Part shown: positions 1 through 28,871 of the stretch, one piece after another | How the letters are laid out: the number at the start of each line of letters is the position of its first letter | Position numbering within the stretch: position 1 is the stretch's first letter | Source: a virus | Virus record (IMG/VR): IMGVR_UViG_3300045988_059318 | Span: 1 to 28,871 of that record | DNA: 28,871 bases | Strand: one strand, 5' to 3' | Made by a program: the position numbers and the translations under genes | Notes under the pieces: model-generated | Told to the model about the DNA's origin: nothing | What the model saw: the letters and a program-made list of their open reading frames with translations, nothing else | Databases searched by the model: none

Positions 1-55
1 GAGGGTGTAAAGCTACTTTACAGAGGGTGTAAAGCTACTTTACAGAGGGTGTAAA
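1..55. repeat. 22-bp tandem repeat GAGGGTGTAAAGCTACTTTACA, 2.5 units. Each unit contains the 17-bp palindrome TGTAAAG-CTA-CTTTACA (iteron/operator-like).
   Basis: Read directly from the sequence. Units lie at 1-22 and 23-44, with a partial unit at 45-55. Bases 1-55 are identical to 28817-28871. Confidence 0.95.
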
Positions 56-75
56 AATATAACACTTTGCAAAAG

Positions 76-104
76 TTGCATATTATGACATTATGTGATA
101 TAGT
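76..104 (+). promoter_or_regulatory. Sigma-70-like promoter, TTGCAT-N17-TATAGT
   Basis: TTGCAT lies at 76-81, followed by a 17-nt spacer and TATAGT at 99-104. The -10 ends 7 nt before ATG 112, implying a leaderless or near-leaderless mRNA. Confidence 0.45.
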
Positions 105-20688: not shown

Positions 20689-20711
20689 GTTTTATTTCTT
20701 TCATTAGTGGT

Positions 20712-20733
20712 GCCCCGCCCGCAAGGGCGGGGC
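20712..20733 (-). repeat. GC hairpin copy A: GCCCCGCCC-loop-GGGCGGGGC
   Basis: A 9-bp perfect stem with a 4-nt loop (TTGC in the sense orientation, inverted relative to copies B, C and E). It lies 8 nt after the stop of 20742-20978 and 24 nt before ATG 20688. Confidence 0.9.
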
Positions 20734-20741
20734 GGGTGGTG

Positions 20742-20978
20742 TCAGTCGCAGAGTTCTTCAATCTGTGCTTCATATGTGGTGTCATAGCTGGTTTCATGGA
20801 ACTTGTTGACACGCCCGAACGTGAAACCGTATTTGCGTTCACATTTGCGACGTATTGAACGGAGAATGTTCTTTGTTTCCACCGCTTCACTGTGGAACGT
20901 GTAGAAGGCGTCAAGTTTCGGGATGTCGATGGTTTGTTTTCCGTCGAAGTAGCTGATGTTGATTGTTGCGGTGTTCAT
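20742..20978 (-). CDS. Cassette ORF S1 (78 aa), paralog of 25203-25451
   Basis: Driven by leader L1. It shares MNTA.I, Y.FHSEAVE.KN, GFTFGRV and YEAQI/YEAEI with S4. Confidence 0.65.
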   Translation of the reverse strand: MNTATINISYFDGKQTIDIPKLDAFYTFHSEAVETKNILRSIRRKCERKYGFTFGRVNKFHETSYDTTYEAQIEELCD

Positions 20979-21045
20979 TTTGATTTGTCCTTCCTTGTTT
21001 GGTTGATAGTTTTATAATACATCACTATTGAGTGCGACACGCCGA
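20976..21045 (-). promoter_or_regulatory. Conserved leader L1 (promoter-like element, RBS and start codon)
   Basis: In the sense orientation it reads TCGGCGTGTCGCACTCAATAGTGATGTATTATAAAACTATCAACCAAACAAGGAAGGACAAATCAAAATG. It is 70 nt from ATG to motif end, as in L2. Confidence 0.6.
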
Positions 21046-21308
21046 CGTTCGACAAACACACCCCAACACATCGGATACTTCAATGGCACCAACCGGGACA
21101 CGCGATAATCAGCGCCATAACGCACTTCAGCAAGCCGAGCAATAACCGCGTGCGCTCTCTCCCTTGCTTCGGCAACCCGCTTATCATAGCCACGTTTGCG
21201 TTTCTCCCAACCGTTGCTAGTCCTCTCATACACCTCCCATACGACACCGTTTTCCGAATAATGAGACTGCGCACGATAGTCGTAAGCGTCAACGTTCCTA
21301 TATTTCAC
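21012..21308 (-). CDS. Hypothetical protein (98 aa)
   Basis: The start is GTG, preceded by GGGGGA. The 3' end runs through the L1 motif. Confidence 0.5.
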   Translation of the reverse strand: MKYRNVDAYDYRAQSHYSENGVVWEVYERTSNGWEKRKRGYDKRVAEARERAHAVIARLAEVRYGADYRVSRLVPLKYPMCWGVFVERRRVALNSDVL

Positions 21309-21320
21309 CGTATCCCCCTT

Positions 21321-21683
21321 TTAGTACATTTCAGCGATGTGTCGAGTGAACGCGCATACGCTGACTGCAGTCAGATAGCCACGTAATCCCGTCTTCCTAG
21401 CCATGAGAACCCAGACTGGGAAAGTGATGAAGGGTGCGAGACACCAACCGCACACGGCAAGATTCTTCAAGCTTTTCGCCTGTGCCTTTTTTCCTACCGC
21501 CACACAGTGTTTGCGGTTATCGTCCGTGGATTGCGTGAATTGTTCGTAATGGTCGGCTACTTTGTCGCACGCCATTTTCCAGCTTTCACGCATGATTCTT
21601 AATTTCAGTCCGTACCCGTCCGTGAGCTGGGCGCAAGTGTTGAGGTATCCGGCGACTAGTCCGGCCTGTACTGCTTTGTTCAT
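21321..21683 (-). CDS. Hypothetical membrane protein (120 aa)
   Basis: ATG 21683 forms an ATGA overlap with the upstream mini-ORF. There is a C-terminal hydrophobic segment (VCGWCLAPFITFPVWVLMA). Confidence 0.5.
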   Translation of the reverse strand: MNKAVQAGLVAGYLNTCAQLTDGYGLKLRIMRESWKMACDKVADHYEQFTQSTDDNRKHCVAVGKKAQAKSLKNLAVCGWCLAPFITFPVWVLMARKTGLRGYLTAVSVCAFTRHIAEMY

Positions 21684-21826
21684 TTCTTCGCTCCTTTGCG
21701 GTAGGTGTAGAGCGCCGCCAACATGCACGCGACACCGATAATATTAATGAAGTTCATGTTTTCGTTCGCAGATAGCACGATCCCGAAGAGAAAGAGTATT
21801 GTCACGAATCCGTCGTTTTTATTCAT
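21680..21826 (-). CDS. Small membrane protein (48 aa), not in the ORF track
   Basis: Translated by hand as MNKNDGFVTILFLFGIVLSANENMNFINIIGVACMLAALYTYRKGAKK. The start lies 24 nt after GC hairpin B. Confidence 0.45.
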   Translation of the reverse strand: MNKNDGFVTILFLFGIVLSANENMNFINIIGVACMLAALYTYRKGAKK

Positions 21827-21849
21827 TGTAGATTCCTTTCATTGGTGGT

Positions 21850-21871
21850 GCCCCGCCCTTGCGGGCGGGGC
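21850..21871 (-). repeat. GC hairpin copy B
   Basis: GCCCCGCCC-GCAA-GGGCGGGGC in the sense orientation. It lies 18 nt after the stop of S2 and 24 nt before ATG 21826. Confidence 0.9.
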
Positions 21872-21889
21872 GTCGATATTTTGACAAGC

Positions 21890-22114
21890 TTAAAAACCGT
21901 ATGCGCATTCGGCTTCGGAGAGCTCTTCCATGTGCTGTTCAATTCGATGCATCGGGTTAACATTTGAGATTATCAGGTAGTTGTATATTTTAGAAATATT
22001 GCCTGTGGACATTGCCGTGTGCGCGTAGTGTTCCCACAGACTGTTAGCGAGTGGATTATCAACATTGTTGAAATCGACGTGATGTGTAATGTTTTCGAGG
22101 TAAACGTATGACAT
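21890..22114 (-). CDS. Cassette ORF S2 (74 aa)
   Basis: ATG 22114 is placed by leader L2 (AAGGAAGGACAAAACAAAATG). The track start at 22201 would read through the leader. Confidence 0.6.
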   Translation of the reverse strand: MSYVYLENITHHVDFNNVDNPLANSLWEHYAHTAMSTGNISKIYNYLIISNVNPMHRIEQHMEELSEAECAYGF

Positions 22115-22181
22115 TTTGTTTTGTCCTTCCTTGTTTGGTTGATAATTACATAATACACTACTTGCGGACACGACACGCCGA
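22112..22181 (-). promoter_or_regulatory. Conserved leader L2
   Basis: In the sense orientation it reads TCGGCGTGTCGTGTCCGCAAGTAGTGTATTATGTAATTATCAACCAAACAAGGAAGGACAAAACAAAATG. It follows a terminator directly. Confidence 0.6.
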
Positions 22182-22224
22182 AAATAAAAAAAGGGAACCA
22201 ACGAAATTGCTTCGTAGATTCCCT
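22181..22224 (-). terminator. Rho-independent terminator on the minus strand
   Basis: In the sense orientation it reads AGGGAATCTACGAA-gcaa-TTTCGTTGGTTCCCT followed by TTTTTTTATTTT. It lies 4 nt after the stop of 22229-22507 and abuts the L2 motif. Confidence 0.7.
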
Positions 22225-22228
22225 AATC

Positions 22229-22507
22229 TCAACGACTGCAATACGCTAAGCACTGCACCTCAAGCGCATCCACATGGCGATAACACACCCCGTCGAACAC
22301 GAAAAAAGGCGCGCTAGAATACTTGTGAGACTTGCGCAGTGTCCAGTAACGGCTATTCCCCGGCTGAACGACCATGAGTGCAATCATAATGCCCGTTTTC
22401 TTCTTGATTCGCACCACCATTTTTCGTAGTTCGTCAATCAACTCACGGTGTTTACATCCAGCGCAATCGTCGAAGACCGCGTAAATGACACGTCGTGAAA
22501 TGCTCAC
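22229..22507 (-). CDS. Thioredoxin-fold / glutaredoxin-like protein
   Basis: VIYAVFDDCAGCKHRELIDEL (strand-CxxC-helix) and APFFVFDG (cis-Pro strand) are present. The GTG start forms a GTGA overlap. Confidence 0.45.
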   Translation of the reverse strand: MSISRRVIYAVFDDCAGCKHRELIDELRKMVVRIKKKTGIMIALMVVQPGNSRYWTLRKSHKYSSAPFFVFDGVCYRHVDALEVQCLAYCSR

Positions 22508-23391
22508 CAGTCTACACCTCCCAGTTTTTGCAGTTCGTCAATGAGAGTTAACGTCTGCAATTCTTTTGTCTCCTGTGCTTCGATTTCACTTGCAACACTC
22601 CGCCGGTCAACCGCGAACACCTCATGTTGCAAACTGCCATACACCCTATCATCGAACATGGTGAAATACACCGTTTGCAAGTCAGGGTTAACGACAAAAT
22701 ACTGCAACACTTGAGCTTGATACTGTTCGGGGATGAAGTCGAACTCTCGACGCGATTCTAGAATCTCCGGGAAGAGTTTGAGCGCCAACGACTGCAATTC
22801 ATCGCGTTGACTATTCGGAGTTTCCGAATCGTTGAGCATCTGGAATACGCGGAATGGAACAACCGTTTGGAGATGGTATTTCGTGCCCAGGCTTTTCGCT
22901 TCGAACGCGAACGTGGGATTATATTCCAGCCCGTTAATGTCGATTTGCGGCTTGGTGTGAGCGTCAGGACTGACCGCAATACGGTCGTCCACGTCACTTA
23001 CCCACATTCCAGTATCGAATTCCACAATGTCAGTGGGAATGTCAAGTTTCTCGCACGCCATCATGATGTTAGTGTTTTCCAAACGGTGGCCGCGCTCCAT
23101 TGGCGGTTCCCCGTCCGGCTGTTCCGCGATCATGTCGGCAAGAAACTGCCAAAAGTCGAGGTTGACTTTCAACCGTTCGTTATCTCGTTTGGCTTGTTCG
23201 GCTTTCACTCTGTATTCTTCGGCCTTTTCTTCGGTCTTTGCCTTGTCTGCCATGGCTTCGAGCTTGGCTACGTCCTTTTGGGCGTAATGTTCGAGCGCGA
23301 GTGTTCCGGCTTTGGTGCCAGTGATTTTGCCAATTCTGGCGTCTAACCATGCTTGCGTGTCCTGTGTTTGCGAAACGTTTAGGATCTTCAT
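22504..23391 (-). CDS. YqaJ-like (lambda Exo-type, PD-(D/E)XK) recombination exonuclease
   Basis: The N-terminus QTQDTQAWLDARIGKITGTKAGTL plus GHRLEN ... SPDAH ... FEAKS gives the catalytic pattern. Confidence 0.75.
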   Translation of the reverse strand: MKILNVSQTQDTQAWLDARIGKITGTKAGTLALEHYAQKDVAKLEAMADKAKTEEKAEEYRVKAEQAKRDNERLKVNLDFWQFLADMIAEQPDGEPPMERGHRLENTNIMMACEKLDIPTDIVEFDTGMWVSDVDDRIAVSPDAHTKPQIDINGLEYNPTFAFEAKSLGTKYHLQTVVPFRVFQMLNDSETPNSQRDELQSLALKLFPEILESRREFDFIPEQYQAQVLQYFVVNPDLQTVYFTMFDDRVYGSLQHEVFAVDRRSVASEIEAQETKELQTLTLIDELQKLGGVDW

Positions 23392-23392
23392 T

Positions 23393-23800
23393 TTAGTTTT
23401 CCTTCCTTACCGGTAATCCGTCTTCCGTGGTGGCGAGCGTGTATGCTTTCAGCAGTGTGCCCGCTATTTTTTGACGTCGTGCGGGCGGGATGCGTCGGAA
23501 CTTGTTTTCCCAATGCGCGACTTGGCATTGCCGTACACCGTACATTTTCGCCATTTCACGCTGGCTGATGCCGAACGCGTTGCGCAAATATTTCAATAAT
23601 TCGCTATCATCCAAAGAGTCAAGATAAATATTCCGACTGTTGACGGTGCGGAGATTGTTTTCATGGTCGAGTGTGAATAGGTTGCCGGTTTTTGACTGGA
23701 CAAGGTAGGCGTAAACGTCTTCTTTGATTCTGTATGTTCGCTCTCCGGCGACGGTTTTGAATGTGATGGGCATGGCTCCCGGCCATAGTGTGAGTCTCAT
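23393..23800 (-). CDS. XRE-type helix-turn-helix regulator with an unknown N-terminal domain
   Basis: The C-terminal LRNAFGISQREMAKMYGVRQCQVAHWENKFRRIP is a classic HTH_3-like motif. Confidence 0.65.
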   Translation of the reverse strand: MRLTLWPGAMPITFKTVAGERTYRIKEDVYAYLVQSKTGNLFTLDHENNLRTVNSRNIYLDSLDDSELLKYLRNAFGISQREMAKMYGVRQCQVAHWENKFRRIPPARRQKIAGTLLKAYTLATTEDGLPVRKEN

Positions 23801-24075
23801 TTATTCTCTCCCATAGTCTTTTCATCATAGAAGACGTATGCGATTCCGTTGACAATGTTGAATTGCCCTCGCACGATGCTTTGGTAAATTGTCGGTTCGA
23901 CCCCAGCCAAGTAGAGCAAGTCTAGTGCGTCCTCTCTGGAATCTGGATAGATTGCGATTTGCGGCGTGTAGTCTTTTAATTCAATGTCCGGTGAGGCTTC
24001 AGCCACTTCGCCAAGCTGGTCTAGCGTCTCTTTGAGGAACTTGACGTATTGAGCAAGGGTTATTGTATCTTTCAT
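23797..24075 (-). CDS. Hypothetical acidic protein (92 aa)
   Basis: The start lies 23 nt after GC hairpin C, and its stop overlaps the start of the HTH gene. Confidence 0.55.
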   Translation of the reverse strand: MKDTITLAQYVKFLKETLDQLGEVAEASPDIELKDYTPQIAIYPDSREDALDLLYLAGVEPTIYQSIVRGQFNIVNGIAYVFYDEKTMGENK

Positions 24076-24097
24076 TATTGTTCCTTTCGTTAGATGG

Positions 24098-24119
24098 TGC
24101 CCCGCCCTTGCGGGCGGGG
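24098..24119 (-). repeat. GC hairpin copy C
   Basis: GCCCCGCCC-GCAA-GGGCGGGGC in the sense orientation. It lies 12 nt after the S3 stop and 23 nt before ATG 24075. Confidence 0.9.
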
Positions 24120-24131
24120 CTGTGGTTTGGT

Positions 24132-24326
24132 TTAGAGTGCGTGTTCCTTGAGCAGTTCGGTGAACTCGTCGGTGTCTACCTGTTCATAATCGGTGTAGCC
24201 GTTCATGTCGCAGATGGTGCGAAGGTCTTTCGCGGCTCCGTAGGTGTCCCAATTGCCGTCATCCTGTCCGCTGTTTTGGATGTAGTTGACGATGTAGGCT
24301 TCTGCTGTGCTGAGGTTGATTTCCAT
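24132..24326 (-). CDS. Cassette ORF S3 (64 aa), strongly acidic
   Basis: Driven by leader L3. By hand count it has about 14 Asp/Glu against 3 Lys/Arg. Confidence 0.65.
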   Translation of the reverse strand: MEINLSTAEAYIVNYIQNSGQDDGNWDTYGAAKDLRTICDMNGYTDYEQVDTDEFTELLKEHAL

Positions 24327-24390
24327 TTTGTTTGTCCTTTCCTTGGTCGGTAATTACATAATACAATAGTTTTGATCACGACACGCCGGA
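24324..24390 (-). promoter_or_regulatory. Conserved leader L3
   Basis: It is 67 nt from ATG to motif end. By hand alignment, 59 of 67 positions are identical to L4/L5. It contains GTATTAT followed by the palindrome GTAATTAC. Confidence 0.6.
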
Positions 24391-24558
24391 CTAGAAACAA
24401 TCCATGACAACGAAACCCATACCCGCCAAACCAATAAGGATATCAGCCAATGCGAGAAGAATCATATAACTATCCTCACACCACAACGCCACCCCCAAAG
24501 CAACAGCGGACACAATCGTAAGCGCCAAGAAACCGCAGAATATAGCAACCTTTTTCAC
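24391..24558 (-). CDS. Small two-helix membrane protein (55 aa), not in the ORF track
   Basis: The GTG start is preceded by GGGAGG and forms a GTGA overlap with the ERF stop. The product reads MKKVAIFCGFLALTIVSAVALGVALWCEDSYMILLALADILIGLAGMGFVVMDCF. Confidence 0.45.
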   Translation of the reverse strand: MKKVAIFCGFLALTIVSAVALGVALWCEDSYMILLALADILIGLAGMGFVVMDCF

Positions 24559-25148
24559 TTATTGCCTCCCTTACTGATAGCCTGACGGAGAAGCATAACG
24601 TCATGTTCGGTCAAGTCCTGAGGCTTACGCACCTCATGGCCGAACTGCGATGCCAAAGCGTTGACGTAAAACCCTAGATTGGTTCCAGCGGCCTGAGCCA
24701 TGTCGTTAAGATCGTTGACTTCCTGTGCCGTGGCCTTCCGTGGTTGTTGTGGTGCAGAATAGTCGCGCATGGCGGCACCGTCATCGTCCTTGTCGGGGAA
24801 GATACCAAGAGCGGCGTAGAGGGAGTAGCGTCGCGCGTAGGTTACTGCGGAGCCGATTGCCTGCGGGTCGGGCACCACCACGAAGGGGTAGTCCCCCACA
24901 TTCAAGGTTTTTTCAGCGTCGAAAATGATTGTTTCGACCGTGCCGTAGCTCACTTTGTCTCCTACCGCACCCATGCGCACCACCTGCCGGAAGGCTAAAT
25001 CATACTTGGCGAAAATAGGCTTGATGGTCTTGAGAATGGTAGCAAGATTAAGGTACTTGTAGGTGCGTTGCCCGGCGTTGGCTATCAGGTCGGTGACGAA
25101 GTTGGGGACTTCGTTGAGTACTGCCATATATTTTTCTTCGAGTTTCAT
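24555..25148 (-). CDS. erf: ERF-family single-strand annealing protein
   Basis: YKYLNLATILKTIKPIFAKYDLAFRQ ... QAIGSAVTYARRYSLYAALGIFPDKDDDG is the ERF core signature. ATG 25148 is placed by hairpin D geometry. Confidence 0.8.
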   Translation of the reverse strand: MKLEEKYMAVLNEVPNFVTDLIANAGQRTYKYLNLATILKTIKPIFAKYDLAFRQVVRMGAVGDKVSYGTVETIIFDAEKTLNVGDYPFVVVPDPQAIGSAVTYARRYSLYAALGIFPDKDDDGAAMRDYSAPQQPRKATAQEVNDLNDMAQAAGTNLGFYVNALASQFGHEVRKPQDLTEHDVMLLRQAISKGGNK

Positions 25149-25170
25149 TATTGTTCCTTTCATTAATGGT

Positions 25171-25192
25171 GCCCCGCCCTTGCTGGCGGGGC
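25171..25192 (-). repeat. GC hairpin copy D (one mismatch at the loop-closing pair)
   Basis: GCCCCGCC-AGCAAG-GGCGGGGC in the sense orientation. It lies 10 nt after the S4 stop and 23 nt before ATG 25148. Confidence 0.9.
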
Positions 25193-25202
25193 GGGTGGTT
25201 GT

Positions 25203-25451
25203 TTAAAGATATTTTATTTCTGCCTCGTAGACTGCGCACTGGTCTAATCCTTGACGCCATGTGAAATCGTCTACAAGGCAGACTCGACCGAACGTGAAAC
25301 CTTCGTCGCGCTTGAGGATGTTGCGCATGTTTGCCAATTGGTTTTTAATTTCCACTGCTTCGCTGTGGAATTCGTAGACTTCTCCGGTTTCTTTGATTAC
25401 GAGACGTTGTGTGCAGATGCGATGGTTGAGGTAGATGATTGCGGTGTTCAT
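25203..25451 (-). CDS. Cassette ORF S4 (82 aa), paralog of 20742-20978
   Basis: Driven by leader L4. It shares sequence blocks with S1. Confidence 0.65.
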   Translation of the reverse strand: MNTAIIYLNHRICTQRLVIKETGEVYEFHSEAVEIKNQLANMRNILKRDEGFTFGRVCLVDDFTWRQGLDQCAVYEAEIKYL

Positions 25452-25515
25452 TTTCTTTGTCCTTTCCTTGGTCTGTAATTACATAATACATTATTGTTGA
25501 GTGCGACACGCCGGA
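25445..25515 (-). promoter_or_regulatory. Conserved leader L4 (71 bp identical to L5)
   Basis: Bases 25445-25515 equal 27835-27905 base for base. The block includes the motif TCCGGCGTGTCG, GTATTAT, the palindrome TGTAATTACA, the RBS AAGGAAAGGA and ATGAACA. Confidence 0.65.
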
Positions 25516-25934
25516 CGCGGTAGAATCTCGCCCAACCGACTCAACCCCCTAGCGGTCTCAAGACCACGGAACCGTTTAGCGGACTGTGCGGCTTCATCGA
25601 GACTACGCCCACTCAACCGGTTACGCCGATACTCCCAACTCGCATCACCCTCAATGCCAAGCGCGGCCATCTCACGCGTAATGTCGACTTCGGAAGGCTT
25701 ATGGTCACGTTTCCACCTACGCCAAAACGCATTGAGGTCGGCGGGCATGAGATACGGGCGCTTCTTCGCGTATTCCGGGTTTGCGAAAAATTGGCGTATG
25801 GCTTCTTTCGCCACGTCTAATCGCATGTCAGTTGCTAACGCTTCCATCCATGCGGCCACCTGCATATCGGTCACAAGACGATTATCAAAGGCGCTGGCAT
25901 AGGTTAGGAGTGCTTGCACTTGCAACTTGTTCAT
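25491..25934 (-). CDS. Hypothetical protein (147 aa)
   Basis: An operon ORF with an ATGA overlap upstream. The 3' end reads through the L4 motif. I recognise no family. Confidence 0.55.
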   Translation of the reverse strand: MNKLQVQALLTYASAFDNRLVTDMQVAAWMEALATDMRLDVAKEAIRQFFANPEYAKKRPYLMPADLNAFWRRWKRDHKPSEVDITREMAALGIEGDASWEYRRNRLSGRSLDEAAQSAKRFRGLETARGLSRLGEILPRPACRTQQ

Positions 25935-26344
25935 TTCAATTCATCCTTATATTCCACTTGCATTAATTTCACGACTTTCACCATGCCGTCCAAGTCACTT
26001 TTTCTAAGGTATCGCCAGAAGAGACCTTCCGTATAGGTGGTGGCTTGGTGTGCAAGGTCTAACATGTTGTCCATGTAGAGACAGCACTTACCCACTTGCG
26101 TGAGGTTGTGCGCGTCCAATGGTTTGCCATCAATTTGCAGACGGCATTTCTCGTCATTGTCGATAGCCCTCTGTAGATACCATTCTGCTTTCTGCAAGTC
26201 TTCAAGCGGATGTCCCTTGAGTCTATACCGCCACACGTATTTTATTGCGTTGCCTACGCAAAAGCTGTGGTATTGCGCGACTTCGATGCATTCGCAAGGT
26301 TTCGTGTTGTCGGTGTAGTGTGCTGGATGATTAACGTTGTCCAT
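25931..26344 (-). CDS. DUF3310-family phage protein
   Basis: NHPAHYT...CECIEV...GNAIKYVWRYRLKG.PLEDLQKAEWYLQRAI matches the DUF3310 signature as I recall it. Confidence 0.65.
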   Translation of the reverse strand: MDNVNHPAHYTDNTKPCECIEVAQYHSFCVGNAIKYVWRYRLKGHPLEDLQKAEWYLQRAIDNDEKCRLQIDGKPLDAHNLTQVGKCCLYMDNMLDLAHQATTYTEGLFWRYLRKSDLDGMVKVVKLMQVEYKDELK

Positions 26345-26356
26345 GATTGTTTCCTT

Positions 26357-26764
26357 TCAGAATTGCGGTGTGATTGAGTCCAGAAAATCGTCAAGGTAAA
26401 GGATGAAGTCTTCTTGCATTGAATCGTGTGGCTGTGGCTGATAGTCCGCATGTAGCCATTGGATGCCACTGGACATTTTCATCCACTTAATACCGGCAAG
26501 ATACACGAGTATCGTATTGTTGACTTTATCAATCGTCCAGTCTGAGGGAGCCACAACGTCCATCATGTAACTTTTAGATTGGGCTCCGCTTCTCTGTCGG
26601 TTTTCTAAGCCTTTCCATGCTGAGAGCCATACGCGGTAGCGGGCTATTTTGGGGTTGTCTTGTATGGTTAGTGCGGTTTCGAATATTGCCGTGTCTTTTG
26701 TCTTGTCGCACTCAACGACGGAATGCATGTCGTACGGTGGTATATCGTTGAATAGTGTCAGCAT
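26357..26764 (-). CDS. Hypothetical protein (135 aa)
   Basis: The start lies 23 nt after GC hairpin E. I recognise no motif. Confidence 0.55.
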   Translation of the reverse strand: MLTLFNDIPPYDMHSVVECDKTKDTAIFETALTIQDNPKIARYRVWLSAWKGLENRQRSGAQSKSYMMDVVAPSDWTIDKVNNTILVYLAGIKWMKMSSGIQWLHADYQPQPHDSMQEDFILYLDDFLDSITPQF

Positions 26765-26786
26765 TTTATTTTCCTTTCAGTTGGGT

Positions 26787-26808
26787 GCCCCGCCCTTGCG
26801 GGCGGGGC
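26787..26808 (-). repeat. GC hairpin copy E (no cassette ORF upstream)
   Basis: GCCCCGCCC-GCAA-GGGCGGGGC in the sense orientation. It is preceded by about 137 nt with no convincing ORF. Confidence 0.9.
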
Positions 26809-26945
26809 GATAACGTCAGATTGCTTGACGGAAATTGGATATTTCGTCGTTATGGTGCTTTACCGTCTCGACGTATTTCAAGGCTTCCTCGTATCCGGAG
26901 TAAGTAAACTCTGGTGGGGTTAATTAATTGCGTAGTCGCATGACC

Positions 26946-27299
26946 TTAGTCTGCGAGTACCGCTAATATGCTGCTCTCACAGTCCGGTCTTGGTAGTGGC
27001 TGCAATACGCCCATATCCTCATAGTACTGGTTCAATGCTGGCATGCTTGTTTGCATGTCCGGGTTGTCGGAATCGTAGAAGACTGTTGAGCGGAGGTATG
27101 GCGAGTATTTATCATATCGCAAGTGCAGTGGGCAGAAGAATCTCGGCTCATTATCACCGGTGAACAGGCACAGCCATTCTTCTTCGTAGATTATGTTCTC
27201 GACTGCGTCTTCCGTGCTTGACGCCCAGAAGTCGTAGGACATGTGGCAGTCTGGGTAGTCGCATTTTGCCAAGTAGGTTGTTTTCACTCTCATGCTCAT
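26946..27299 (-). CDS. Hypothetical Cys/His-containing protein (117 aa)
   Basis: CDYPDCH ... CPLH is a possible metal-binding motif. There is an ATGA overlap with the upstream gene. Confidence 0.55.
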   Translation of the reverse strand: MSMRVKTTYLAKCDYPDCHMSYDFWASSTEDAVENIIYEEEWLCLFTGDNEPRFFCPLHLRYDKYSPYLRSTVFYDSDNPDMQTSMPALNQYYEDMGVLQPLPRPDCESSILAVLAD

Positions 27300-27520
27300 T
27301 CGACGCTCCTTTCGGCTTCGCGCATGATGTGCCGCATGTCGGCATCGGTCAGCTTAGCTAGTGTCAGGTTGGCACCGGCCAAGTCTACGCCTGTCAGGCC
27401 TGCGCCTGTCAGTTCTGCGCCTCCCATGTCTGCGCCGCGTAGGCATCTGCGCCCGTATTTTTCGAGTATTTCTTCGATGTTGTCGCCTTCGAGTGTGGCT
27501 GTTGGTGTTTTAATTTTCAT
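27296..27520 (-). CDS. Pentapeptide-repeat protein (74 aa)
   Basis: GADMGGAELTGAGLTGVDLAGANLTLAKLTDADM contains consecutive A(D/N)LXX-type pentapeptides. A strong RBS (GAAAGGAAAGGA) precedes the gene. Confidence 0.7.
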   Translation of the reverse strand: MKIKTPTATLEGDNIEEILEKYGRRCLRGADMGGAELTGAGLTGVDLAGANLTLAKLTDADMRHIMREAERSVE

Positions 27521-27548
27521 TATGGTTCCTTTCCTTTCTGTTGATTGT

Positions 27549-27560
27549 GGGGGGGGGGGG
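27549..27560. repeat. Homopolymer G12 (C12 in the sense strand) in the 5' UTR of the pentapeptide-repeat gene
   Basis: Counted directly. It lies 29 nt upstream of ATG 27520. It can pair with GGGGG (sense strand, 27573-27577) to give a variant hairpin where the GC hairpin sits in the other cassettes. Confidence 0.9.
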
Positions 27561-27589
27561 ATTGTGCGGTTGCCCCCGCCGCTATAGTG

Positions 27590-27841
27590 TCACCACGTCT
27601 GCGCGAACTGTTCGACCTGCTCGGCGCTGAAGGTCTTGGCGGGGTCACGGTAGTCTTCGTCGGCTGTGGTGAAGGCGTAGGACGTGTAGTAGGCGTTGCC
27701 TTCGTCGTCGACGGCCTGATCGCGGTCGATGCTCTCCCAGCTGCCGCCTTCCTCTTTGGCTTCGATCGTATAGTCCTCGCTCATCCAGTAGTGGTAGAGG
27801 TCGGCGTAGGTGCTGGTCTTGGTGAATTCGATGCTGTTCAT
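27590..27841 (-). CDS. Cassette ORF S5 (83 aa), strongly acidic
   Basis: Driven by leader L5. It is rich in Asp/Glu/Tyr (EDYTIEAKEEGG, DDEGNAYY, ADEDYRD) with few basic residues. Confidence 0.65.
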   Translation of the reverse strand: MNSIEFTKTSTYADLYHYWMSEDYTIEAKEEGGSWESIDRDQAVDDEGNAYYTSYAFTTADEDYRDPAKTFSAEQVEQFAQTW

Positions 27842-27905
27842 TTTCTTTGTCCTTTCCTTGGTCTGTAATTACATAATACATTATTGTTGAGTGCGACACG
27901 CCGGA
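27835..27905 (-). promoter_or_regulatory. Conserved leader L5 (71 bp identical to L4)
   Basis: See L4. A second copy of the motif CGACACGCCGGA lies at 27941-27952, inside the 3' end of the replisome organizer gene. Confidence 0.65.
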
Positions 27906-27931
27906 AAAAGAAAATGCCCGCCGAAAATAAA

Positions 27932-28696
27932 TCACGGACGCGACACGCCGGACTCAATCTGAAAGCCGAAGAGGTCAGTTTGCGACTGCATCGCTTGAGT
28001 GAGATTCTGCATGTTCCTTTCCGCGTTCGTGACGGGCTTGCGGGCTTGTGGCGGGTCTGGACGGTATTCGTCATTCCATCGTTCGCCGTTAAGCCATGTT
28101 GCGAAATTGGGGATAAACCGGGTTTCCGTGTTGGCGCACTGTGCGGCAAATGCTTGCACCTTGGCCATGAGAAAGGCGCTGTTAATGCCTACTTTTGCTT
28201 TACGCCATGCCTTGTAAGCGGCCATCTTGGCCACATGCTTGGGGTAGATTGTCCACAGTTGTTCGAATGCGTTCGGGTATTCTTCGCGCTTATGTTGCGC
28301 GGGTTCCGTCGGTGCGGGTTCGCGTGTGGGTTCTACCGTGGTAGTCGATTCTGGAGCTTGGTAAAGCGTTTTATCAAGCGTATCAGACTCAGAATGGCGC
28401 TTCACATTGTCTACGTCCATTGTGACGTGATACACATTGCTCGACGCCCCACCATTATCAAGCTTGCGACGTCTTTTGACTATAAGACCCTTATCCTCCA
28501 AGCTTTTAAGAGCTTTGAGTACGGTTGGTTTGCTTAGCAATGATTCGGCGCATAGTGTGGCGAGAGACGGGAAGCATTCGCCGCTATCGTTTGTGTGGTC
28601 GGCTAATACGAGATATACGAGCTTTTCATTAGCAGTCTCGAAGTGCTTCCCTCTGATAACCCAGTGGCGTACTGCCATAAAACCATAATCACTCAT
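27932..28696 (-). CDS. Replisome organizer / replication initiator-like protein (N-terminal winged helix)
   Basis: LVYLVLADHTNDSGECFPSLATLCAESLLSKPTVLKALKSLEDKGLI is typical of the phage replisome-organizer N-terminal wHTH. The C-terminus has YPKHVAKMAAYKAWRKA ... FATWLNGERWNDE. The gene lies next to the iterons. Confidence 0.6.
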   Translation of the reverse strand: MSDYGFMAVRHWVIRGKHFETANEKLVYLVLADHTNDSGECFPSLATLCAESLLSKPTVLKALKSLEDKGLIVKRRRKLDNGGASSNVYHVTMDVDNVKRHSESDTLDKTLYQAPESTTTVEPTREPAPTEPAQHKREEYPNAFEQLWTIYPKHVAKMAAYKAWRKAKVGINSAFLMAKVQAFAAQCANTETRFIPNFATWLNGERWNDEYRPDPPQARKPVTNAERNMQNLTQAMQSQTDLFGFQIESGVSRP

Positions 28697-28703
28697 AGCT
28701 CAC

Positions 28704-28732
28704 ATTGTATGTCAATTACCTTAATCGCGCAA
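28704..28732 (-). promoter_or_regulatory. Sigma-70-like promoter TTGCGC-N17-TACAAT for the early arm
   Basis: In the sense orientation, TTGCGC (28732-28727) is followed by a 17-nt spacer and TACAAT (28709-28704). The -10 ends 7 nt before ATG 28696, which implies a leaderless mRNA. Confidence 0.45.
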
Positions 28733-28766: not shown

Positions 28767-28797
28767 CTTCAATGGTTATTCTTCAATGGTTATTCTT
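28767..28797. repeat. 14-bp tandem repeat CTTCAATGGTTATT, 2.2 copies
   Basis: Read directly. It lies between the early promoter and the 22-bp array. Confidence 0.9.
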
Positions 28798-28798
28798 A

Positions 28799-28871
28799 GT
28801 GTAAAGCTACTTTACAGAGGGTGTAAAGCTACTTTACAGAGGGTGTAAAGCTACTTTACAGAGGGTGTAAA
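28799..28871. repeat. 22-bp palindromic repeat array, continuing into bases 1-55
   Basis: GTGTAAAGCTACTTTACA lies at 28799-28816. Full units follow at 28817-28838 and 28839-28860, with a partial unit at 28861-28871. Confidence 0.95.

Follow-up and report, generated by a model that had tools for sequence, protein, structure and literature searches.

Why should a small phage genome repeat one leader and one GC hairpin five times on the same strand, around small open reading frames (ORFs) that vary from copy to copy? The question is raised by IMG/VR record IMGVR_UViG_3300045988_059318, whose 28,871 nucleotides (nt) are referred to here as the window, and by five leader–ORF–hairpin units in its minus-strand early arm. 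The initial annotation of the window had taken these units for exchangeable slots with fixed flanks, and the alignment of related genomes agrees with this: the backbone is constant, the enclosed ORF varies, and the same ORF is found in different slots. The explanation that we favour, at a probability of about 70%, is that the arm holds five early promoters, each with a promoter-proximal dock for accessory genes, and that the leader and the hairpin with its ribosome-binding site (RBS) provide portable homology for recombination. The docked ORFs are referred to here as cargos, and their families are lettered.

At the head of each unit is a leader containing the pattern CGGCGTGTCG-N13-TGTATTAT, which matches the window exactly five times, always on the minus strand (21014–21044, 22150–22180, 24358–24388, 25483–25513 and 27873–27903), where 0.01 matches would be expected from shuffled sequences. 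Alignment of the leaders extends the similarity to a conserved block of about 62–66 nt that reaches the ATG and consists, in order, of the box CGGCGTGTCG, a 13-nt spacer, TGTATTAT, GTAATTA and an A/C-rich stretch with a GAAAGGA RBS. Leader La of slot 1 (27842–27903) has TG and TATTAT after its spacer, followed by GTAATTAC and the A/C-rich 5′ untranslated region (UTR) with its RBS. Leader Lb of slot 2 (25452–25513) has the same make-up, and the two are 100% identical across 71 nt. Leaders Lc (slot 3, 24327–24388) and Ld (slot 4, 22115–22180) are defined by pattern match and alignment, and leader Le (slot 5, 20979–21044) is a variant with TATTATAAAACTA after the −10-like hexamer.

Occupying the −35 region of the leaders is the invariant 10-nt CGGCGTGTCG box, and the −10-like TATTAT is preceded by TG, an arrangement from which we infer that the leaders are early promoters. 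Across 142 non-redundant leader-headed units, identity reaches about 99% in the box and the TGTATTAT block, which keep a fixed spacing, and only about 50% in the 13 nt that separate them, so that the pair looks like a bipartite recognition site and not like the outcome of simple homogenisation. The box may bind a phage or host factor; its geometric position matches that of the MotA box in the middle promoters of phage T4. Directly upstream of Ld is a canonical intrinsic terminator (22187–22224, minus strand), formed by a 13-pair stem with one internal mismatch and followed by U7, and a new promoter is therefore needed at this point. The 5′ UTR of the leader is predicted by folding to be unstructured (−0.7 kcal/mol).

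A sixth CGGCGTGTCG box, within the 3′ end of the HTH_36 gene (27941–27950, minus strand), is likely to be a vestigial leader. It has no −10-like element after it, and is followed by a T-rich 45-nt insert and then by the real leader La (27906–27950 region). Given that the leader of the relatives 29647_11, 063342 and 041424 begins directly at the position of this box, the window has either a partial leader duplication or a vestigial leader.

At the other end of the units are five copies of the hairpin GCCCCGCCC-GCAA-GGGCGGGGC, which has a 9-bp GC stem and is found on the minus strand of the early arm only; a looser form of the pattern gives six matches against 1.0 expected. Each hairpin is joined to an RBS block that leads into a backbone gene. 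Hairpin Hx (26787–26808; 26765–26808 with its block) reaches the ATG of a 135-amino-acid (aa) backbone gene, Hb (25171–25192, with one mismatch; 25149–25192) stands before the gene for the recombination protein ERF, Hc (24099–24120; 24076–24120) before a 92-aa backbone gene, Hd (21850–21871; 21827–21871) before a 48-aa one and He (20712–20733, with the loop inverted to TTGC; 20689–20733) before a 53-aa one. The distance from cargo stop codon to hairpin is 8–18 nt, as first described; the next start codon, placed 23–24 nt beyond the hairpin in the initial annotation, lies 22–23 nt past the stem by our own count. This interval consists of ACC(A/C), a few bases and (A)ATGAAAGGAA, the conserved RBS block being AATGAAAGGAA, and it contains no promoter-like element. 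The form AATGAAAGGAAC of the block includes an ATG, which before ERF (25149–25163) is in frame, giving MKGTIMKLEEK..., and in the other slots is out of frame; gene callers may therefore extend ERF by five codons.

Every related genome has the leader followed by the hairpin within 250–400 nt, and 127 non-redundant hairpins were collected from about 30 genomes. In their alignment 92% of cells pair and compensatory changes occur at four pairs, a result equalled by 6 of 500 shuffles, which indicates that the hairpin is maintained as a structure. The folding energy of the hairpin itself is −21 to −24 kcal/mol, and that of the intergenic segments −21 to −29 kcal/mol (z-scores −3.6 to −4.6). The flanks of the hairpin on the sense strand are almost free of G. 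Inverted loops between the palindromic arms were seen twice, as TTGC against GCAA (He) and as GCGT against ACGC (in one relative, L044), and look like DNA-level flip events.

Enclosed by these elements in the window are five small ORFs of 83, 82, 64, 74 and 78 aa, all on the minus strand. Four of the five units are complete, with the cargo followed directly by its hairpin: S_b (family B, 82 aa, 25203–25451), S_c (family C, 64 aa, 24132–24326), S_d (family D, 74 aa, 21890–22114), whose family is found in slot 2 or slot 5 of other genomes, and S_e (family B′, 78 aa, 20742–20978). Although the ORFs had been described as mostly unrelated, S_b and S_e are paralogues (39% identity, E = 4e-15); the remaining window cargos are mutually unrelated, as stated. 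The count of five leaders, five ORFs and five hairpins also stands, with the exception that slot 1 is not a simple unit: its leader and hairpin are separated by two extra genes and a gene remnant in addition to the cargo.

Slot 1 begins with cargo S_a (family A, 83 aa, 27590–27841), followed by a linker (27521–27589) of the form GGCGGGGG ... C12 ... RBS, which accompanies cargo A in other genomes. Next are a 74-aa pentapeptide-repeat protein gene (PF00805 in Pfam, 27296–27520), a 117-aa ORF without a Pfam family (26946–27299) and a remnant of cargo family I (26816–26911), and then hairpin Hx, the fifth hairpin of the array. The remnant, which comprises the last 31 codons and the stop codon and is 93% identical to the intact 109-aa slot-1 cargo of contig 063342, reads as the scar of an earlier occupant of the slot. 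The 'G12 variant' that had been proposed as the hairpin of this cassette, a pairing of the G-run at 27573–27580 with the C12 at 27549–27560, was rejected, as it does not fold stably (z = +0.9 relative to shuffles); it is part of the linker described above, which moves with this cargo. Cargo A never directly precedes a canonical hairpin, except in 29647_11, and is stacked ahead of another cargo (A+F and A+G; L008 5569–6282 and L052 1269–1986), as it is stacked ahead of the two extra genes in the window. Cargo A behaves as a second kind of insert, entering between the leader and an existing cassette.

Related genomes were collected by scanning IMG/VR for the leader pattern, which gave 54 loci on about 30 contigs of 17–32 kb, most of them under a single IMG metagenome id (3300045988). 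The backbone has the same order in 31 early arms (HTH_36 / p135-DUF3310-p147 / ERF-p55 / p92-HTH_3-Exo-p92b / p48-p120-p98 / p53-p68, the slashes marking the docks). Distributed over these docks, in about 30 related genomes of 24–32 kb, are about 13 families of ORFan cargos (A, B, B′, C, D, E, E′, F, G, H, I, J and K), and at least 18 five-slot combinations were counted. Slot 1 is occupied by G (17 cases), F or I (4), A (3) or E′ (1), with two genomes lacking a cassette, and slot 2 by F (15), B (5), D (2) or one each of A, C and E′, with the leader fused to ERF in one genome. Slot 3 nearly always holds C (27, against one E). In slot 4 are E or E′ (23), D (1), J (1) or A followed by F (1), and in one genome the leader is fused to p48; in slot 5 are B (13), B′ (9), H (2), D (1) or F (1), and two genomes have K upstream of leader-B, in one of them with a leader of its own. 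The empty slots, slot 2 of 041424 and slot 4 of 29647_11, retain the leader, fused to the backbone gene, and have no hairpin. Scars are also present: two deletions extend from the leader to the 3′ end of a cargo, and several genomes have in slot 5 the opening segment of the leader running straight into the final codons of B′.

Comparison of cassettes shows where the exchanged segments begin and end. When the same cargo is compared between different slots, identity is about 30% 5′ of the leader, rises to 99–100% from the box, stays at 90–99% through the ORF and hairpin, and falls to about 30% by 20 nt past the hairpin; when the same slot is compared between genomes with different cargos, the profile is reversed. 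The joints of the window's D cassette can be located by comparison with contig 23504_27. Positions 22112–22472 match the upstream flank of slot 4 in that contig and positions 21610–21872 its downstream flank, and positions 21822–22182 match the cassette in its slot 2 (91%). The overlaps between these matches are exactly the leader (22112–22182) and the hairpin with its RBS (21822–21872). The window arrangement, with D in slot 4, is present with an identical protein in four independent samples, and D in slot 2 is present under two IMG metagenome ids.

Variation within the flanking elements narrows the joints further. The 13-nt leader spacer tracks the slot, and the final 20–25 nt of the 5′ UTR tend to track the cargo. 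On the other side, the first base of the stem and the distance from stop codon to hairpin track the cargo, whereas the hairpin loop tracks the slot: of 21 slot-2 copies, 14 have ACGC irrespective of the cargo. The tetranucleotide after the stem also tracks the slot; the right joint therefore falls inside the hairpin. In the empty slot 2 of 041424 the joint is inside the RBS GAAAGGAA. As read from these alignments, cargos are exchanged among the five slots, with the left joint between the −10-like element and the ATG and the right joint within the hairpin.

One cassette has also been captured outside the family. A scan for the hairpin sequence recovered the siphovirus family to which the window belongs and a single other contig, IMGVR_UViG_3300045988_005064 (L100). 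This contig is a phi29-like podovirus of 18.4–18.7 kb, with a Phi29-type single-stranded DNA-binding protein (SSB), a protein-primed DNA polymerase, a Phi29 capsid protein and a connector, and it has no backbone gene in common with the siphoviruses described here. It was found in one ENA and one Logan assembly as well (L143 and L144), hence in three sources. Cargo G is the first gene at one end of this genome (93% amino-acid identity), and the homology, 95–97% over 351–362 nt, comprises the −10-like region, 5′ UTR, ORF and hairpin, up to the GAAAGGA that follows it. Missing from the phi29-like copy is the CGGCGTGTCG box; its promoter-like sequence TGGTATGAT is of extended −10 form. The cassette is therefore a transferable unit in which the hairpin moves with the cargo, and the box, which is specific to the family, supplements a core based on the −10. 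Cargos F and B were not found in other phage families in IMG/VR. The two phage groups probably share a host. The phi29-like phage has a GC content of 0.54 over the 10.5 kb read (L143), and its terminal 200 nt consist of T/G-rich short repeats, TTTGTGTGTTTTT-like.

From these observations a mechanism can be proposed. The early arm would consist of five consecutive transcription units, each opened by the same leader, and the first coding position behind the leader would serve as the accessory-gene dock. A typical cassette would comprise a small ORFan, a 9-bp GC hairpin 6–18 nt after its stop codon and a fresh RBS that hands over to the first backbone gene. The only sequences common to all slots, the leader at the left end and the hairpin/RBS block at the right end, would act as portable homology, through which recombination could swap, delete, stack and import cassettes between slots, between relatives and occasionally into unrelated phages. 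The hairpin would mark or protect the 3′ end of the cargo message, or partly attenuate read-through, and the cargo would thereby be expressed more strongly than the operon behind it.

Candidate enzymes for the exchange are encoded within the same arm. The initial annotation had pointed to a recombination set of the phage's own, and all of its members are present: the single-strand annealing protein ERF (PF04404, 24555–25148, minus strand), a candidate recombinase for cassette exchange; a YqaJ-like exonuclease (PF09588, 22504–23391, minus strand), its presumed partner; and, on the plus strand, SSB and RusA. Because ERF/exonuclease-type systems need only tens of bases of homology, we propose that ERF and the exonuclease carry out the exchange. 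A scan of 30 ORFs of the window, including part of the small ones, revealed neither an integrase nor any other site-specific recombinase.

How the cargo and the backbone genes behind it would be expressed depends on the hairpin. With no promoter after it, the downstream backbone genes must be read from the same leader as the cargo, and the independent expression of the units that had been suggested is doubtful on the basis of the sequence. In empty slots the leader directly heads the backbone gene, and genomes with a decapitated slot-5 leader, in which the −10 is lost and the hairpin kept, still hold the downstream genes. In the 9 nt after the stem U makes up 18% of bases (127 copies); window copies have one to three U, compared with U7 at the canonical terminator of the same genome. 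The absence of a U tract, together with that of a promoter after the hairpin, indicates that the hairpin is not a canonical terminator and probably not a full one. Most likely, it is an mRNA 3′ stabiliser or decay barrier, or a partial attenuator, more than a terminator; a role as a DNA-level crossover hotspot may coexist with such an RNA role. The stem-loops between cistrons of malEFG (REP) and in the puf operon set differential mRNA stability within operons. The likeness to them lies in a stable hairpin, free of a U tract, directly 3′ of the first cistron, and this analogy is positional only; those elements differ in not being linked to gene exchange. Cargo H carries an unrelated GC hairpin at the same place, likewise without a U tract.

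Several points weigh against the favoured explanation. The leaders are putative promoters, predicted from sequence, and a sigma-70 scan does not call them, because they have no −35 hexamer (no TTGnnn); the host may follow promoter and terminator rules of its own. The position of the right joint implies crossovers within about 9–22 nt, which is short for classical homologous recombination and could reflect template switching at a palindrome. Among unique hairpin variants, G-U and A-C mismatches are about equally frequent (9 versus 10), and with no excess of G-U nothing ties selection on the hairpin to the sense RNA rather than to DNA. The hairpin is also not obligatory, as cargos J, K and A are without a strong one. 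Finally, all of the genomes compared are metagenome assemblies, in which individual contigs could hold chimeric joins at repeats.

The alternative that survives best, which we nevertheless consider distinctly unlikely, is that the hairpins are true terminators, that the units are independent monocistronic morons, and that the cargos are immediate-early genes with a backbone expressed after antitermination, as with N and tL1 of phage lambda. The position of the hairpin directly after the first cistron recalls pL-N-tL1, the system with which such a position invites comparison, and the GC stems are very stable, as their folding energies show. The hosts of the nearest isolates (Bifidobacterium) are Actinobacteria, for which U-tract-poor terminators have been proposed, a proposal that is contested. 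In addition, the polyG/polyC-rich stem-loops of promoter early stem-loop (PeSL) elements in T4-type phages terminate experimentally (PMC2839356). Against termination, the low U content after the stem is found in a genome that ends operons with U7 stems, the gap between hairpin and backbone gene offers no promoter-like element, and no candidate for an antiterminator came to light. In genomes that have kept the slot-5 hairpin and lost the −10 of its leader, the genes downstream would be reachable only through two hairpins.

About equally unlikely is the view that the hairpin works mainly as DNA, as a structured recombination site (a replication-stalling palindrome with template switching, or an attC-like site) that gives the cassettes selfish mobility, with no RNA function. 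This would account for the right-hand joints inside the hairpin, for the perfect palindromic stem with a loop inverted in two independent cases, as is typical of DNA flips, for mismatches without strand asymmetry, and for the movement of the hairpin with cargo G into an unrelated phage. It fits less well with the absence of an integrase or site-specific recombinase among the scanned ORFs and with a left joint in an ordinary unstructured leader. The non-homologous GC hairpin of cargo H suggests that the structure itself is useful to the cargo, beyond homology, and the G-free flanks on the sense strand fit a protected RNA hairpin.

Highly improbable is the idea that these are ordinary reiterated promoters and hairpins without a role in exchange, the shuffling being produced by assembler mis-joins of co-occurring relatives: although the comparison genomes are all short-read or mixed assemblies, most of them from one IMG id, and the La–Lb identity is long enough to tangle an assembly graph, the same pairing of slot and cargo turns up in samples and sources that are independent of one another (ENA, Logan and two IMG ids), the 18-nt gap of D is retained in every slot, as is, in most cases, its A-first hairpin, while the loop tracks the slot, the scars and the cargo-I remnant are not producible by mis-joins, and the phi29-like transfer is seen in three sources.

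Five promoter-proximal docks with portable homology on both sides remain our preferred explanation, and a wider version of it can be formulated, which we offer as speculative and, on balance, unlikely. Promoterless 'ORF + GC hairpin + RBS' cassettes might form a recombinase-independent, integron-like pool across unrelated phages that co-infect one gut bacterium, in this case the siphovirus family and the phi29-like podovirus. The hairpin would then have a dual role, as a DNA crossover point (by annealing or template switching in its 5′ arm) and as an RNA 3′ stabiliser, and the CGGCGTGTCG box would mark phage-specific, factor-dependent early promoters as docks.

Among known systems, the closest is that of the PeSL elements, which the initial annotation had named as a partial analogue; the function is the same, and the defining anatomy is not that of PeSL, neither the composite motif nor the sigma-70 −35/−10 pair being present. 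In T4-type phages, conserved promoter/stem-loop repeats flank small ORFans, and recombination at these repeats drives indels and replacements, with crossovers mapped between the −10 and the Shine–Dalgarno sequence (PMC2839356, PMC4122927; Arbiol et al. 2010, Comeau et al. 2014). The present repeats likewise flank ORFans and serve as linker joints for insertion, deletion and replacement, with a similar left joint. A PeSL, however, is a single intergenic element in which the stem-loop leads straight into a sigma-70 promoter and its AT-rich UP region, and each ORF thereby forms a unit of its own, whereas here promoter and hairpin are on opposite sides of the cargo and the hairpin gives way to an RBS and a backbone gene. 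The leader lacks a TTGACA-like −35 and has the invariant G/C-rich box in its place. PeSL stem-loops have been shown to terminate, circular cassette intermediates also being characteristic of that system, and the hairpins described here have no U tract. Furthermore, this 29-kb siphovirus, whose host is Gram-positive, has just five docks, and each of them heads a conserved operon.

A likeness to morons, which had also been proposed, goes as far as the presence of extra genes between conserved backbone genes, present or absent among relatives and bracketed by promoter-like and hairpin elements. Morons of this kind are reportedly found in lambdoid and other temperate phages, as described by Juhala et al. 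in 2000. The units are not classical morons: the promoter is not the unit's own and is that of the operon, being kept in empty slots, and the phi29-like copy has no box. The hairpin is not a factor-independent terminator and has no terminator U tract, the base composition of the cargos is not distinct, and a few docks are reused, with cargos moving between them. For GC content, cargos range over 0.42–0.59 (mean 0.50) and the backbone over 0.45–0.55 (mean 0.49), with no systematic difference.

With integrons there is a functional analogy only: in both, an ORF that lacks a promoter and ends in a folded inverted repeat is captured beside a resident promoter and owes its expression to that proximity. 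Here no integrase was found among the ORFs scanned, nor an attI site, and the stem is a perfect 9-bp helix with a tetraloop, unlike attC, an imperfect palindrome with bulged bases that recombines as folded single-stranded DNA. The joints do map inside the stem-loop. There are one or two cassettes per promoter in place of long arrays, and exchange looks homology-driven. The start-associated sequences (SAS) and extended SAS (ESAS) of cluster K mycobacteriophages resemble the present elements in having a conserved RBS block 5′ of starts, often preceded by an inverted repeat, in one orientation of the non-structural arm (PMC3203893, Pope et al. 2011). The 13-bp SAS motif GGGATAGGAGCCC, which lies 3–8 bp before starts in cluster K, has no match in the window with up to two mismatches. 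The ESAS has imperfect 17-bp arms with 4–13-nt spacers and is tied to the family of the downstream gene, whereas the stem here is a perfect 9 bp and its 5′ side tracks the upstream cargo. For cluster K SAS no cassette exchange is described (PMC3203893).

The system is an unusually clean natural case of the Susskind–Botstein 'linker' model at the level of single genes: about 13 ORFans are interchangeable among five docks, the joints resolve to within a few tens of bases, and in one instance a cassette has turned up in a phage family unrelated to this one. PeSL-type shuffling, described for the large T4-like myoviruses that infect Gram-negative bacteria, is here extended to a small siphovirus of the gut whose host is Gram-positive and whose family is unstudied. 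The principle itself is already known; what is new is an architecture of docks at operon heads instead of a chain of self-contained units. Owing to their first position in the operon and their fast turnover, the roughly 13 small early proteins are prime candidates for host-takeover or anti-defence functions, and both of the structures predicted for them are confident (predicted local distance difference test score, pLDDT, 87–92). The leader and hairpin pair could serve both as homology arms and as expression signals for engineering this phage group.

Ten of the cargo families were searched against Pfam and PHROG, where no match scored below E = 0.02, and families A, B, D, F and G have no relative among PDB sequences. 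Cargo C is predicted to be an acidic protein of three helices (pLDDT 92) and cargo G a small α/β protein (pLDDT 87.5); neither AlphaFold model matched a PDB fold at an E-value below about 0.4, and the model of G had no match below 0.01 in BFVD. A protein search with cargo C returned 94 clusters, some with more than 200 members, none of them outside the present phage family. Cargos A and C are strongly acidic (pI about 4.05 for both), and in slot 1 cargo A is adjacent to the pentapeptide-repeat gene; the pentapeptide-repeat fold mimics DNA in other proteins. Acidity and such a neighbour fit host-takeover or anti-defence roles and are compatible with them as far as sequence features go.

Following the stem, A is found at +1 in 94% of hairpins and C at +2 in 98%, with the full ACCA in 54%; the unrelated hairpin of cargo H is followed by CACA. 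A tRNA-like 'minihelix + ACCA', recognized as an RNase P site, is a low-probability idea. In a search of Rfam 15, only tRNA elsewhere in the genome reached the gathering score, and the best match in the region was rnk_pseudo (E = 0.15, 28 bits against a cut-off of 55 bits).

The window represents a phage genome in full, circularly permuted and about 28.9 kb long, as bases 1–55 are repeated at 28817–28871 and the same sequence is present as a 28.9-kb scaffold in the human-gut metagenome ENA ERZ28619439. The phage is an uncultured human-gut siphovirus of a Gram-positive host, the gut origin being taken from the sample name and the Gram-positive host from a lysin with GH25, CW_7 and LysM domains. 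On the plus strand are the genes for SSB, RusA, two tRNAs, the large terminase subunit (TerL), portal, capsid–protease fusion, tape measure and tail proteins and the GH25+CW_7+LysM endolysin. The early genes run on the minus strand from 28696 down to about 19980 and encode HTH_36 (27932–28696), DUF3310, ERF, HTH_3 (23393–23800), the YqaJ-like exonuclease, an HNH protein and many ORFans. The tRNA genes, Ser(GCT) at 2488–2573 and Gln(TTG) at 2759–2831, are just 5′ of the terminase gene.

Relatives of this phage are known from metagenomes. Megablast of the region against 50,697 phage records gave no match at the nucleotide level, and the nearest isolates are the Bifidobacterium asteroides phages BlindBasel1 and BlindUri1, with TerL merely 53% identical. 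When BlindBasel1 was examined for repeats, none comparable was seen, so that the system is not general to that lineage. A query with the exonuclease recovers the same 28 genomes (89–98% amino-acid identity), and protein searches place the family in many ENA and Logan assemblies. Sources that carry the phage include ERZ28619439, ERR13957515 and SRR13271629. A TerL search of 185,579 species genomes for the host gave no relative; the leader pattern, searched in 596 Gb, gave seven single matches in unrelated genomes, close to the number that chance would give (roughly 17 by our own estimate for 18 fixed bases). A sigma-70-type promoter-like site of the HTH_36 gene (28704–28732, minus strand; TTGCGC-17 nt-TACAAT), noticed by eye and not flagged in the scan, lies 7 nt before the ATG and is conserved in the relative L097; the leaders, by contrast, have no TTGnnn −35. 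The 7-nt gap suggests a leaderless mRNA and is a possible hint to the host; leaderless mRNAs are common in Actinobacteria.

Accessory variation is not confined to the five docks. Contig 041424 (L052, 2418–3575) has a 385-aa ORF, C5-methylase-like by eye, between p135 and DUF3310, and L096 (2403–3035 and 6959–7687) has a weak match to DNA_methylase (PF00145) at the same position and a D12-class N6 methylase near RusA; the window has neither set of methyltransferase genes. L096 is contig_8494 of ENA ERZ1761048, 59.7 kb long, and carries cargo C and many split genes (an ERF of 157 aa and a lysin in two pieces). Over the 20 kb read, phage genes lie on either side and no junction with host DNA appears; the contig is most likely an error-rich long-read assembly of a concatemer, as opposed to a prophage.

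Spanning the ends of the window (1–77 and 28768–28871) are 22-nt direct repeats, TTTACACCCTCTGTAAAGTAGC on the minus strand, of which about five to six copies are present after joining the ends. Adjoining this array are two tandem 14-nt repeats, GAATAACCATTGAA, at 28768–28795. Both sets fall within the control region from which the SSB-side genes and the HTH_36 gene diverge, and they have the look of iterons or operators, whether of an origin or of an early control region. In L097, a non-permuted relative, the 22-nt array is internal.

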